Shown one piece after another: positions 23,968 to 40,554 of a DNA stretch of 40,554 bases. The position numbers and the translations under genes are program-made. Location: UHGV virus genome UHGV-0200722; one strand, written 5' to 3'. Source of the stretch: a virus. Position 1 is the first letter of the stretch, and the number at the start of each line of letters is the position of its first letter. The notes beneath the pieces are model-generated. The model was not told the origin of the DNA, did not search any database, and saw nothing but the letters and a program-made list of their open reading frames with translations.

Positions 23968-24129
23968 ATGAAAGGAATGAGCAAGATGCCGCAGTTCAAT
24001 TTGCGGTGGCCTAAAGAAGTATTGGATTTGGTACGCAAGGTGGCGGAAGAGAATGGTCGGTCTGTTAACTCTGAGATTTATCAGAGAGTAATGGAAAGCT
24101 TTAAGAAGGAAGGGCGCATTGGCGCGTAA
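23968..24129 (+). CDS. arc: Arc repressor
   Basis: Internal start [53 protein letters not shown]; matches P22 Arc (53 aa). The track ORF from 23905 is an upstream extension. Confidence 0.95.
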
Positions 24130-25311: not shown

Positions 25312-27654
25312 ATGACAGATATTACAGCCAATGTTGTAGTGAGCATGCCTTCGCAACTCTTCACTATGGCTCGTTCTTTTAAAGCCGTAGCCAATGGCAA
25401 AATTTATATCGGTAAAATTGACACTGACCCGGTAAATCCTGAAAACCAGATTCAGGTTTATGTGGAGAACGAAGACGGTTCTCACGTTCCTGTTTCGCAA
25501 CCAATCATCATTAACGCTGCTGGATATCCGGTATATAACGGACAGATTGCCAAATTCGTTACCGTGCAAGGCCATTCCATGGCTGTTTATGATGCGTACG
25601 GTGCTCAGCAGTTCTATTTTCCTAATGTGCTAAAGTATGATCCAGATCAGTTTAGGCAGCAGCTTGCAGTAGTTGATAGCAATGTATTGATTTCTGGTGT
25701 TCCAGCAAAAGATGTTGTAAATGCCAAAACTGGACGAGCACCAGTAGTTATGACTCGAAAAGTTACAGACCTTCTTCTTGATGGTAAGGCTGGATTGCGT
25801 AAAAACTTTGGTGCTGTAGGCGATGGTAGTCATGACGATACACAGGCATTTAATGATCTGTGGGATGCGCTTATGGATCCGACATATAAACGCCGCGCAA
25901 TAGAAACAGACGAGGTTGGTCTGCCATTTATGATACAAAAAGGCCCGGCACTTCTAATTGAAAATGGAACGTTTATTTACAATGGGCCTGGTCTCAATAT
26001 TGAAACATCAGATTCATTTGTATTTAACATATCAGGTGAGAGCAGTATTTCAACAAAGATACTTTTACCAGATGGAGTATACCTATTCGATTTCGATAAT
26101 AACCCTGTTCATGCATATCTAGGGAACATGTCAATTCATGGTGGTAAAGGTGCTGTTCGATACAAATCAAAAGAACGATCAACTAACAGCATTCACCTTT
26201 TCGAAAATCTTCGCCTGTCGAGATACAAGGAGTGTGGCATAGGGAATAATTCAATCGATATGCCGTATTTCCGAGTGAAGGGATGCATGTTATACGGGGA
26301 CCCAGCAAGCCAGACTATTGGTATTTGTGTCTCTGGTTACTCTGCTGGCGGCTTCATTGAGGACTGTGTTATCAGCGACAATAGATATAATATAAAACTG
26401 GCAGTTGGTGATAATGGCGTGGAGCGTAATGGCCCTGCAACGCCTTTCTATGTCTGCAGGAACGACATGTACCGCACGGGGCGACGAGCGCCATCAGCAT
26501 CGTATGACATATGGATTGAGCCTGGTGCTACTACCCTCAACTCTGGGAGAGGTATTCAGATAATCCAAAATAAATTTGGGCAAGAAAACCTAATCGCACC
26601 AGATACTCATGTTTTGATCGCAGATGCTGCCGCTACAGGGAGCGGGTTAAATCTCAATGGAGATCGCGCTCATATAGAAACACAGTCAGTTGGTTTTGTG
26701 TCTGGCTTACGTTTCGAGGGGAATAACGTAAACTCAGCTAATAGTGGATATATTGCCCCTTTCATTCGCTCATTTACGCCAAACCTTGGAAATAACAAAA
26801 TAAATGACCTTTATGACAATGACATGCCAGCAAGAATCATAGAGTTCGCGGGTGGCATAACCCAAAGTCAAATGACTAACCTTTCACGTACCAACGTCTT
26901 TAGTGCAGACCAATGCATTGCGCTTCAGAAGGGTGTTGAACCTAAGTTGTTATCTAACCTTAATGATGTCTTCCGGCTTGATGATCCTTTGGGGTTCTAC
27001 GTCGGGCATCCTCAAGCTCAGGTTTTACCGTCAGGTTCTCAGCAGATTGGATTTGAATTGATCTACTCTGGGCCGACGTCGACGATTGGGGTGAGTAACG
27101 CAACAAGATTATCGGTAAATAACTCATATGGAGGAATATCGGAAGCAACTGAAATCACAATGACCGCTTCTGATGGCGTGGCAGTTGCCACTGTTGTTGG
27201 CGGACTTGCTGGTAGGAAGCACTGGATTGATTTCGAGCTTAAGCGCGGGACAACAAACCCTGTTGGTTCTGTTGTTGTGGAGATAATGGATGCTTCCGGG
27301 TCAGTTCTCCAACTTCGTCGTATTATTTTAATAGATACTTTTCCACGCTGGCAGAAAGTCGCCATTCCTTATATTCCAAATGAAGACGGTAATATTGTAG
27401 TCAAATTCAGATCTAATCTTTATTCGGCTGGAACGGCAACTAACTTTATTGTCGGAAATCTCAATGTTTACAGGAATGAGGAGCGAGTCAATACAGGGCA
27501 TAACTCAGGATTGAGGATGCAATGGAATCTACAACATACCGTAAGAGGCACAAGACACGAGTGGTATGACGCGTCAGGTAATTTACGCTCCAAAAATGGG
27601 GTGCCGAGTGGGGATGCCGATGGGGTAATCATTAGCGCTAACCCAACATTGTAA
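25312..27654 (+). CDS. Tailspike protein (P22 gp9-type head-binding domain; divergent receptor-binding domain)
   Basis: First ~110 aa match the P22 gp9 N-terminal domain ([12 protein letters not shown]...[34 protein letters not shown]...VLKYDPDQ); the remaining ~670 aa are unrelated to P22 gp9. Confidence 0.9.
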
Positions 27655-27717: not shown

Positions 27718-27957
27718 ATGATCAGACGCAACATAATTTCGGAGGCTTTCAGAGCCTCCATTTCTATAAATCCTAAAGGTTATCAATACCTTTACACGCA
27801 TTCTTTCATCTCCGAACTACAGAGGATGGGTATCAATTTCTCAGAAGAGGAGGCTAACAACTGGATATCGAGAGAGCAGACTTACTTTGTTGACAAAACC
27901 ACCGACCATAGCGAAAACCGCCTGTGGATGCTGGCCAATATGGGGAGGGTGCTCTGA
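27718..27957 (+). CDS. Hypothetical 79-aa protein, first gene of the LexA-box operon
   Basis: ORF directly downstream of the LexA box; stop overlaps the next start (TGATG); no recognisable family. Confidence 0.5.
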   Translation: MIRRNIISEAFRASISINPKGYQYLYTHSFISELQRMGINFSEEEANNWISREQTYFVDKTTDHSENRLWMLANMGRVL

Positions 27958-28274
27958 TGGGATTTCCATCACCGGCGTCCGACTACGTCGAGCAGCTACT
28001 GTCCGTTAACTCGATATGCAATGTTGGTCCTAACACATTGTTGCTTGAAACCAGTGGTGGATATGCCGTGGTTGATGTCTCTCTGAAACTTAAGCAGAGA
28101 TGTCAGGTGATGGTCTGCTATGAAGCACATAATCAGATAGCGAAGCTTATGGGGAAATCTTTGATAACGGAGGATGGAGAGGCGATCGAGGGAGAGGCCC
28201 TGGATGATGTCACCGTTGCCGTCGTGGTGACGCATATTATCGTGGATGTGAGAAGTGACAGCGTAGCAGTATAA
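27957..28274 (+). CDS. UmuD'-like (HumD-like) protein lacking the catalytic Ser motif
   Basis: Begins M-GFPSPASDYVEQ, matching the post-cleavage N-terminus of UmuD (GFPSPAADYVEQ); C-terminal beta-region resembles UmuD, but the GDSM motif is not conserved. Confidence 0.5.
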   Translation: MGFPSPASDYVEQLLSVNSICNVGPNTLLLETSGGYAVVDVSLKLKQRCQVMVCYEAHNQIAKLMGKSLITEDGEAIEGEALDDVTVAVVVTHIIVDVRSDSVAV

Positions 28275-28619
28275 GGCAGACCCACAATCAGGGCCTGCCG
28301 ATTTTGATTACTCCACCTTTTCATCAATCCAGTCCGCCCACCACTGCATCATTTCTCTGCGCTTATCGTGGCAGATGCCTCACTATCACACGGTGATGGT
28401 TCATTACTGGTTTGCATAATGGATAGAGAACTGAGGATAAAAGATATCCCAAAACCCCAAAATCTCATCTTTAGGATTTGCAGAAAGGGAGGCGTGAACA
28501 AATACCTGCGCATGAAAACGGAACTAGTCCGGATGCGATATTTTTGGTGATCACGTACATCATCAACGAAGCGCGTTATGGTGAGTTTTATGACTGCCAA
28601 GTAATGTGAAAATTGCGAT

Positions 28620-28642
28620 GCGTACCAAATTGTGTACCAAAT
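28620..28642 (+). repeat. Arm-type direct repeats (GTACCAAAT x2), putative integrase arm sites of attP
   Basis: gcGTACCAAATtgtGTACCAAATt, ~280 bp upstream of int. Confidence 0.55.
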
Positions 28643-28870
28643 TAAAATCATAAACCATGAACCCCTTACTCATGGCTGTTCTCAGGCTGGGTGCGTGTAA
28701 TCGTGAAAGAGGAAGGTAGGTTGTTTATCTGTGTCTGTCATTGTCTAGCATTGTCCACTGTAGTTAATTAACTGTCTGTTATAACTCGAAAAAACAACCA
28801 TTTTTTCACCTGAGTATGTCTACGAACGTCAAATATAGTTGTTTACTGTGCGCTGTTGTCCATGTGATAT

Positions 28871-28917
28871 TGTGTACCAGATGTGTACCAAACCATTATT
28901 TCTGAGCGTACCAAATA
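28871..28917 (+). repeat. Arm-type direct repeats (TGTACCAG / TGTACCAAA / CGTACCAAAT), putative attP arm sites adjacent to int
   Basis: Three copies of the same 9-bp motif within 50 bp, ending 7 bp before the int start codon. Confidence 0.55.
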
Positions 28918-28923
28918 TTATTT

Positions 28924-30102
28924 ATGGCTATAAGCGACACAAAACTGCGTACTATTTATGGTAAACCATATTCGGGCCCACAAGAAGTGGCTGATGCCGA
29001 TGGCCTCAGCGTACGAATTTCACCGAAGGGGGTCATCCAGTTCCAGTACCGCTATCGCTGGCATGGCAAGCCTAATCGACTTGGGCTTGGTCGATACCCA
29101 TCCCTGTCTTTGAAGGATGCCAGACAGATCACTGCTGACTTGCGAAAGCTCTATTTCTCAGGAACGGATCCACGCACCTATTTTGAAGAGAAGGTGGAGA
29201 ACTCCATGACGGTCGCCCAGTGTCTCGACTACTGGTTCGACAACTACGTCTCTACAACTCTCAGAGAAAAGACCCAGGCACTTTACCGATCAACGGTTAT
29301 GAAGCGCATGCATGACGCCTTTCCTAATCGTCCGGCATCTTCTATCACGGTTAAGCAATGGGTTGACCTGCTTACCGAAGAAGAAAGAGATAATCCACGC
29401 CGAGCAAGGCAGGTGCTAAGTCAACTAAGATCAGCAATAAGTTGGTGCATGCGGCGTCAGTTGATAGATAGTTGCGCAATTATGAGCATCCAGCCAAGGG
29501 ACTTCGGCTCCCGCGCTGAGGTAGGGGATCGGGTACTGTCGTATCACGAACTGGCTAAGATTTGGCTTGCTATTGAAAGAAGCCGTGCGTCTACGTCAAA
29601 TAAGCTCCTTCATCAGATGCTTATGCTGTGGGGGGCGAGGCTCTCAGAGCTTAGGCTGGCAACAAAGACAGAATTTGACCTGCTGGACAACGTATGGACC
29701 GTACCGAAAGAGCATAGCAAGATGGGTAATGTTATCCGCCGTCCAATCTTCGAACAAATTAAGCCTTTTCTCGAAAAGGCCATGACAACGTACAATGATG
29801 TTATTTTCCCTGGAGAAGACATAAACAAACCGATCAGCATCGCTGCAGCCAACCGATTCGTAAATAGAATAAGGGGAGGGATGGATCTAGGTTACTGGCG
29901 AACACATGATTTCAGAAGAACGCTTGTTACACGTCTGTCCGAGATGAATGTCGAGCCTCATGTTACTGAGCGAATGCTCGGTCATGAACTTGGCGGGATA
30001 ATGTCCGTGTACAATAAACACGACTGGATAGAGGCTCAGCGCAAAGCGTATGAGCTTCACGCTGATAAATTGTTCTGGCACATCAGGAGCATTTCTGATT
30101 AA
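28924..30102 (+). CDS. int: Tyrosine integrase (P4-type, arm-binding N-terminal domain)
   Basis: 392 aa; N-terminal arm-binding-like region (VRISPKGVIQFQYRYRW); C-terminal catalytic motifs (HDFRRT, LGH, terminal Tyr). Confidence 0.9.
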   Translation: MAISDTKLRTIYGKPYSGPQEVADADGLSVRISPKGVIQFQYRYRWHGKPNRLGLGRYPSLSLKDARQITADLRKLYFSGTDPRTYFEEKVENSMTVAQCLDYWFDNYVSTTLREKTQALYRSTVMKRMHDAFPNRPASSITVKQWVDLLTEEERDNPRRARQVLSQLRSAISWCMRRQLIDSCAIMSIQPRDFGSRAEVGDRVLSYHELAKIWLAIERSRASTSNKLLHQMLMLWGARLSELRLATKTEFDLLDNVWTVPKEHSKMGNVIRRPIFEQIKPFLEKAMTTYNDVIFPGEDINKPISIAAANRFVNRIRGGMDLGYWRTHDFRRTLVTRLSEMNVEPHVTERMLGHELGGIMSVYNKHDWIEAQRKAYELHADKLFWHIRSISD

Positions 30103-30274
30103 CGCCACCGTTAAGAATCCACCCTTCAACAGCTTCACGAAGGTATGATTTGGGGTGGGTTCTGACTGGCTTCGGAAATCCGTGCCGTTTGGTATAGTTC
30201 CAGATTGTCTGACGTGATGAAACACCGAGCTTGTTCATCACTTCTTTCTCAGGAATCAGGCTGGTATCGGTCAT
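30083..30274 (-). CDS. AlpA-family excisionase / transcriptional regulator
   Basis: 63-aa HTH protein (...LIPEKEVMNKLGVSSRQTIWNYTKRHGFPKP...); GGAGA RBS; adjacent to and convergent with int. Confidence 0.75.
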   Translation of the reverse strand: MTDTSLIPEKEVMNKLGVSSRQTIWNYTKRHGFPKPVRTHPKSYLREAVEGWILNGGVNQKCS

Positions 30275-30355
30275 CTTAATTCTCCAGGCAAAAATAAACC
30301 GCCATATAGCGGCTCTATCAGATATGTACAGGCCTCATCGAGTGTGAGGCTGTGG

Positions 30356-40492: not shown

Positions 40493-40554
<62 letters not shown>

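Follow-up and report, generated by a model that had tools for sequence, protein, structure and literature searches.

The region at about 28610-28923 of the window (the whole stretch of 40,554 nucleotides that was analysed, from virus genome UHGV-0200722) very probably represents an intact attP belonging to an integration module of the phage 2851 / Sf101 type, carried by a mosaic P22-like (Lederbergvirus-like) coliphage. The attP/int module is already known and an attP is already annotated in the records of the relatives mEp234, HK544 and HK140, such that the site is not the open question that the initial annotation took it to be. Modestly new here are the five-site GTAC architecture of the attP arms, the conserved replacement of the 5' end of the target gene, sbcB (exonuclease I), and a sister clade that uses the 5' end of argW.

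The module is readily identified at the DNA level. Positions 28306-30300 of the window are ~97% identical to Sf101, mEp234 and E212, and from 28697 onwards the identity to the prophage left ends and int genes of 2851, 1717 and other Stx phages is 98.8-99.3%. Over attP, int and the AlpA-like gene, the 2851, Sf101, mEp234, HK544, HK140 and 1717 modules show 97-99% DNA identity with that of the window, the core, arm repeats, orientation and sbcB target all being shared; the differences from the 2851/Sf101-type module are that the 13-bp core begins with T here, that the cargo slot on the left differs and that the rest of the genome is another mosaic. The GenBank records of mEp234 and HK544 give a 13-bp 'prophage attachment site (type 2851), similar to sbcB', that of HK140 gives a putative attP and that of phage 1717 a 13-bp duplication arising from insertion.

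Two genes for recombination lie to the right of attP:

28924-30102, + strand: tyrosine integrase (Int) of 392 residues, assigned by Pfam, by PHROG (phrog_1) and by motif positions
30083-30274, - strand: AlpA-like excisionase/RDF candidate of 63 residues, convergent with int with a 20-bp overlap

Int matches Arm-DNA-bind_3 (PF13356) over residues 4-85 (64.8 bits versus a cut-off of 27) and Phage_integrase (PF00589; 61.4 bits versus a cut-off of 27.1), with a catalytic domain spanning residues 204-366 in which R239, H328, R331, H354 and Y363 are located as the catalytic residues. These assignments indicate a heterobivalent tyrosine integrase with a P4-type arm-binding domain, the N-terminal domain being the putative arm-binding element. 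The AlpA-like ORF matches phrog_66 ('excisionase and transcriptional regulator', E 1.9e-8) and, weakly, Pfam AlpA and HTH_17. As the initial annotation proposed, and as the ORF, Pfam and PHROG analyses confirm, int is on the + strand, convergent with the RDF-candidate gene and opposed to the early-left operon. Lambda and P22 likewise employ a heterobivalent tyrosine integrase, arm sites flanking a core and an RDF, but their int and xis genes are co-oriented and read from the early-left operon; also unlike lambda and P22, the target here lies inside a coding gene, the 5' end of which is replaced by the phage.

The crossover core lies between the two clusters of repeats, within the interval (28643-28870) predicted for it by the initial annotation:

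28697-28708, no strand: crossover core GTAATCGTGAAA, identical to sbcB codons 13-17 (F-H-D-Y-E); its reverse complement reads TTT CAC GAT TAC, i.e. F-H-D-Y

On alignment of the phage records, the published 13-bp core, CGTAATCGTGAAA, corresponds to 28696-28708; 12 of its 13 positions match here, with T at 28696 instead of C, and the perfect identity of the core with attB is 12 bp. The core plus its flanks match sbcB codons 10-17, and the host flank in the 1717 record, translated on the - strand, reads as SbcB from F-H-D-Y-E-T-F-G. The check on prophage junctions that had been suggested for a lysogen was carried out on relatives, with attL of MY203L1 and attR of XJ23PTE1 and LD39-1 being compared with K-12 attB. 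Both types of junction lie inside sbcB; the location of the core within the predicted interval thus stands, and the tRNA target that had been proposed with it does not. When aligned, K-12 attB, MY203L1 attL and XJ23PTE1 attR recombine on paper as expected, the order at attL of the MY203L1 lysogen being sbcB, core, P' arm and int, and that at attR of the XJ23PTE1 lysogen being tailspike, small ORFs, P arm, core, native sbcB 5' end and dacD. A synthetic attR query, made from the window's own P arm and K-12 sbcB, had full-length matches in 564 of the 5426 complete E. coli genomes searched, LD39-1 being one of them. These results are consistent with those reported: Sf101 has the same 13-bp attP and junction PCR puts its integration in the sbcB 5' end, with the work on phage 2851 placing integration there likewise (PMC4159516), and Stx2c phages, as a rule, insert at sbcB (PMC3519850).

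The initial annotation envisaged instead a tRNA or tmRNA gene as the target, its 3' end being matched by the core that lies between the two clusters, as might be expected given that tRNA genes are the target of many P4-type integrases and that a sister clade, with Int 50-56% identical, does adjoin tRNA-Arg(CCU). Against this, ARAGORN detected no tRNA-like sequence in the whole window, and the codon 10-17 match, the lysogen junctions and the literature all point to sbcB; we consider that there is next to no chance of a tRNA or tmRNA target for this phage. The F-H-D-Y-E segment of sbcB presumably holds the first acidic residues of the DEDDh exonuclease motif, which would explain conservation of the target across genera.

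The base difference at 28696 raises the question of whether the module is a decayed, non-working remnant, in line with which the window also has intS and umuD-like relics at 28311-28609 and an IS21-family element inserted elsewhere in the genome. The int gene is, however, a full-length ORF with all its catalytic residues present, an IMG/VR contig (L047) with an Int 100% identical to that of the window has the same T, and the variant base sits outside the 12-bp block common with attB. Moreover, attR at sbcB in the lysogenic strain LD39-1 keeps the T of 28696, from which it follows that phages carrying T at this position do integrate and that strand exchange occurs to the right of 28696. Decay of the module is thus very improbable, and we regard it as intact.

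Two further observations concern the surroundings of the core. A chromosomal attP-like copy (L006) is present in E. coli O157:H7 MB9-1 (NZ_CP040107.1 2010817-2019436), with 93% identity over 98% of 28300-28930; on one side of it is the tail-fibre/nleG7 end of a prophage and on the other the int gene of the next, a layout that indicates tandem prophages at sbcB. The residues T-H-P-A, encoded immediately left of the core in the P arm, resemble a remnant of sbcB but were given little weight; they occur in the window and in Sf101 and are absent from mEp234 and HK140.

Five direct repeats, all on the + strand, are present upstream of int in two clusters, at 28620-28643 and 28872-28916:

28620-28631, + strand: P1, arm-type repeat GCGTACCAAATT, the distal P-arm site (the 11-nt GCGTACCAAAT occupies 28620-28630)
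28632-28643, + strand: P2, arm-type repeat GTGTACCAAATT, P arm (the 11-nt GTGTACCAAAT occupies 28632-28642)
28872-28881, + strand: P'1, arm-type repeat GTGTACCAGA (the 11-nt GTGTACCAGAT occupies 28872-28882)
28883-28892, + strand: P'2, arm-type repeat GTGTACCAAA, 11 bp after P'1 (the 11-nt GTGTACCAAAC occupies 28883-28893)
28906-28915, + strand: P'3, arm-type repeat GCGTACCAAA, 23 bp after P'2 and 16 bp before the int ATG (the 11-nt GCGTACCAAAT occupies 28906-28916)

The consensus of the 10-11-nt motif is KYGTACCARA, i.e. (G/T)(C/T)GTACCA(A/G)A. The repeats are located where the initial annotation placed them, and their frequency is above chance: the 8-mer GTACCAAA occurs five times in the whole 40.5-kb window versus 1.12 expected (none of 100 shuffles gave five), with four of the five copies falling in a 300-bp stretch that is part of the attP region, on one strand. 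The fifth copy, at 24027-24034 on the - strand, is unrelated; it is part of an exact GCGTACCAAA at 24027-24036 (-), inside or adjoining a small ORF upstream of the tailspike region, and is probably there by chance. The layout of the five repeats is as expected of arm-type sites, which, together with the core, bears out the attP reading proposed by the initial annotation.

Conservation of the repeats was investigated by searching the Int protein against one genome per species, which gave 30 loci (39-99% identity) from Enterobacterales, Orbales and Photobacterium, to which a scan of viral contigs added more. A full-length divergent sbcB is present ~180 bp upstream of int in 24 of the 30 loci. 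Among 50 distinct int-upstream sequences, drawn from Enterobacterales, Orbales and the argW-targeting sister clade, 46 have three GTAC-centred sites with spacings of 11 and 23-24 bp, the last being ~15 bp before the ATG; the GTAC at the P'1 position is likewise kept in 46 of the 50. Within each locus P'2 and P'3 covary, as GTACCAAA, GTACAGAA, GTACATAA or GTACAAAA. Conservation of the P arm rests on three independent intact attP sequences. The viral contig L073, with an Int 73% identical to that of the window, has an intact attP with sites at -300, -288, -49, -38 and -15 from the int ATG, compared with -302, -290, -50, -39 and -16 here, and in both the P2 GTAC begins 74 bp from the right-hand edge of the core, despite strongly diverged DNA in between. 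The intact attP of L121 (sister clade, Int 56% identical) has the same 2 + 3 layout, such that the repeat positions are held in relatives with Int merely 50-73% identical. Both the kept positions and the in-step variation within loci support the assignment of the repeats as arm-type Int sites, for which these comparisons thus provide strong indirect evidence. Residue 39 of the arm domain varies with the repeat variant and the Int lineage; a link between this residue and the repeat variant is suggestive only. A limited literature search, covering sources other than the 2008 phage 2851 paper, revealed no paper on the arm sites of this integrase. In Klebsiella sp. BIGb0407 (L035), a perfect tandem (GTTCACT) x 7, expanded from a second repeat family, GTYYA, is present 60-110 bp upstream of int, where two of the three GTAC sites are absent, making this an unusual form of the P' arm.

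Since three of the repeats lie 16-50 bp upstream of the int ATG, where the promoter must be, we also considered that the GTACCAAA repeats might be operators for a transcription factor controlling int, e.g. the AlpA-like protein or a host factor, rather than arm sites. However, two more copies lie ~250 bp away, across the core, at a core distance that is exact to the base pair in the relative with a 73%-identical Int, such spacing being typical of intasome geometry and unlike that of an operator. Int itself has a dedicated arm-binding domain, the repeat variant follows the Int lineage, as does (suggestively only) arm-domain residue 39, and the RDF has the separate phased GTYYA family at its disposal. 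An operator role in place of Int binding is therefore improbable, and we favour the assignment of all five repeats as arm-type sites.

The core end of the P' arm carries a replacement for the part of sbcB that integration separates from the gene:

28741-28709, - strand: phage-borne replacement sbcB 5' end, comprising an ATG (28741-28739) and 10 codons, in frame with the core

On the - strand the P' arm reads ATG ACA GAC ACA GAT AAA CAA CCT ACC TTC CTC, followed by the core TTT CAC GAT TAC, which translates as MTDTDKQPTFL-FHDY, versus the native MMNDGKQQSTFL-FHDY. In the lysogen MY203L1, RefSeq annotates an intact 474-residue sbcB that begins at the phage ATG. Equivalent replacement N-termini are present in more than 20 loci of other genera, nearly all of which end in Q-P-T-F-L/Y, with the distance from the F-H-D-Y codon to the int ATG always being 203-231 bp. 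The phage-borne start with its 11 codons, the intact sbcB ORF in a lysogen and the equivalents in other genera together indicate that the cassette rebuilds the gene that it splits. At attR, translation shows that the native sbcB start runs into the P arm and stops after four codons. Local alignment of the P' arm with the K-12 sbcB upstream region beyond the first codons gave a score no better than that of shuffled sequences (46 of 500 scored at least as high), such that the replacement 5' end is not detectably copied from E. coli sbcB upstream DNA. A literature search on N-terminal replacement of sbcB, the scope of which did not extend to the 2008 phage 2851 paper, returned nothing relevant.

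Other elements of the arms were assigned as candidates from motif scans:

28677-28653, - strand: terminator-like hairpin followed by a T-rich tail (consensus scan only)
28723, 28743, 28753, 28818, 28841 and 28858 (span 28723-28862), + strand: second repeat family, GTYYA, candidate sites for the AlpA-like RDF
28842-28871, + strand: weak candidate int promoter, TTTACT, 18 nt, TG-n-GATATT (relaxed scan, 8/12), with its predicted start inside P'1

In a prophage the hairpin would face transcription that comes in at attR from the promoter of native sbcB. The GTYYA family was counted in 45 distinct P' arms, in which it occurs 148 times on the + strand versus 6 times on the - strand, most commonly with a 10-bp spacing, although base composition, together with the sbcB coding sequence nearest the core, may account for part of this strand bias. 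Five TorI sites act cooperatively in KplE1 attL, and by analogy the GTYYA repeats may be binding sites for the AlpA-like RDF. A standard promoter scan of 28250-29000 gave no hits; the relaxed scan gave weak candidates only, including a leftward one (10/12, 19-nt spacer), such that a convincing sigma-70 promoter was found neither for int nor for the rebuilt sbcB. The ATT of the candidate -10 box and the TGTCCA upstream of it are nearly invariant across genera. No site fitting the IHF consensus, WATCAANNNNTTR, was found in attP, and a 100-residue ORF at 28349-28651 on the - strand, which has no Pfam or PHROG match, was read as non-coding.

The combined observations suggest the following mechanism. 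The N-terminal P4-type domain of Int would bind the five KYGTACCARA direct repeats, two in the P arm and three in the P' arm, while the core-binding and catalytic domains would exchange strands within the 12-bp GTAATCGTGAAA at 28697-28708, with codons 13-17 of sbcB, rather than a tRNA gene, as the bacterial partner. Integration would join the body of sbcB to the start codon and 10 further codons of the phage, so rebuilding an intact ORF at attL, beside int, and at attR the native sbcB promoter and first codons would read into the P arm, up to the stop after four codons. Lying 16-50 bp before the int ATG, the three P' sites probably coincide in part with the promoter of int, which Int is thus expected to repress; excision is expected to require the convergent AlpA-like protein.

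The module functions in the manner of other heterobivalent P4-type integrase systems; as regards arm sites lying over the int upstream region, a parallel is provided by the IntS-TorI module of KplE1 (CPS-53), HK620 and Sf6, in which a P4-type integrase is likewise transcribed away from its att site. In that module the P' arm sites, and in KplE1 also the RDF sites, overlap the int promoter in attL, leading to negative autoregulation (PMC2951348, PMC3509656). The corresponding features here are three arm repeats at most 50 bp from the int ATG, with phased additional repeats upstream. As to a promoter overlapped by such sites, the arm repeats here are 16-50 bp upstream of the ATG, and the promoter match is weak (8/12). 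Despite these similarities, the module is not a member of the KplE1 IntS module, as judged by Int identity, arm motif and the position of the RDF gene. K-12 IntS is merely 22% identical to Int here, which is not IntS-like in sequence; the arm sites of IntS have a TAAA motif, rather than GTAC, and its target is the argW 3' end. Given the 22% identity, the TAAA and GTAC arm sites are not comparable. The KplE1 RDF gene ends at the other end of the prophage, whereas the AlpA-like gene here is on the int side of attP, directly downstream of int and convergent with it.

Satellite phage P4 Int, the prototype of the Arm-DNA-bind_3 (DUF4102) integrases, is heterobivalent and has an N-terminal domain of the same family as Int here. 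In P4, Int sites are repeated on both sides of the core and int is repressed by both Int and the RDF Vis. The P4 target is a tRNA-Leu gene, unlike the sbcB target here.

The initial annotation considered the whole of 28276-28923 as attP-like, which holds for about 28610-28923 but not for the left ~330 bp (28276-28609), which consists of gene relics. The features on this side are:

25312-27654: tailspike with a P22 head-binding domain (Pfam)
27957-28274, + strand: UmuD-like ORF of 105 residues (phrog_3469), with its stop at 28274
28311-28367 (57 bp), - strand: intS relic of KplE1/Sf6 type, the last 19 codons (tblastn with K-12 IntS residues 367-385, 95% identity)
28478-28609, + strand: umuD-like 3'-end relic (45% identity to the C-terminal 40 residues of the HK140 UmuD-like protein, E 4e-9)

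The stop codon of the umuD-like relic is 11 bp before P1 and likely marks the left edge of attP; HK140, HK544 and APC_JM3.2 are homologous to the window from 28536-28546 only. Similarity of the 105-residue UmuD-like ORF to the HK140 UmuD-like protein is confined to the first 18 residues of the ORF (MGFPSPASDYVEQ...), which gave no match to Peptidase_S24; the separate relic with the C-terminal 40 residues is ~200 bp beyond the ORF. Many E. coli genomes contain DNA matching intS 3' ends; the intS relic is common to Sf101, mEp234 and E212 and adjoins gtrA/gtrB in the LD39-1 prophage, which suggests that the 2851-type cassette replaced an older intS/argW cassette.

The slot between tailspike and attP is occupied here by a 79-residue ORF (phrog_3893) and the UmuD-like ORF (phrog_3469), and in relatives by oacB (Sf101), DinI and UmuD-like genes (HK140), gtrA/gtrB (LD39-1 prophage) or nleG7 (O157 MB9-1). 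A serotype-converting gtr/oac cassette was not found between tailspike and int; as the initial annotation had noted for gtr-like genes, searches for GtrA, GtrB, GtrS and OacB (tblastn over the window with K-12 YfdG, YfdH and YfdI and Sf101 OacB) gave no hit better than E 0.29. The adjacency of tailspike, attP and int was proposed to be the phage, rather than prophage, configuration, with the window being read as a circle. In agreement with this, the P and P' arms are contiguous, and an IS21-family element spans the ends of the window (40528-40554 joined to 1-~1890, with IstA at 40-1062 and IstB at 1059-1841), which implies that the ends abut and that the phage genome carries an IS. The element, with inverted ends GTGATCCAC and GTGGATCAC, sits between the replicative-helicase gene and a DUF7301 ORF, and related phages match the window from 1993 onward only.

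A sister clade (loci L027, L029, L031, L093-L113 and L121; Int 50-56% identical) has the same 2 + 3 GTAC repeat layout, but in this clade a tRNA-Arg(CCU) gene is divergent to int, its 5' end being ~195 bp away. Of tRNA-Arg(CCU), the intact attP of L121 contains the first ~24 nt only. The crossover of the sister-clade elements thus seems to fall within the 5' part of argW, with a new 5' end being supplied by the element, unlike in the usual integration at tRNA 3' ends. The replacement in the sbcB clade comprises the start and 10 codons (11 in total) with the conserved Q-P-T-F-L end, and that in the argW clade the first 24 nt of the tRNA. It is tempting to propose, though we do so tentatively and consider it rather doubtful, that the lineage comprising both clades is specialised for crossover in the 5' ends of conserved host genes, in contrast to the usual targeting of tRNA 3' ends, with the replacement 5' end residing in the P' arm; expression of the host gene in a lysogen would then have to proceed from phage DNA dense with Int and candidate RDF sites, through which the recombination proteins could control the levels of exonuclease I or tRNA-Arg. 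A limited literature search revealed no description of the 5'-replacement layout or of a GTAC arm-site code.

The overall results give sbcB as the predicted integration site of this phage, as for the Stx2c phages of O157 and the serotype-converting Shigella phage Sf101, in a phage that is without O-antigen-modifying cargo. They provide an intasome map with a 12-bp exchange block, five arm sites and phased candidate RDF sites; the cassette to which it applies occurs in about one in ten complete E. coli genomes. Lysogeny at sbcB need not inactivate exonuclease I; this point is of importance for recombination phenotypes, which are affected by sbcB status, and for the typing of O157 strains, in which sbcB occupancy is used.
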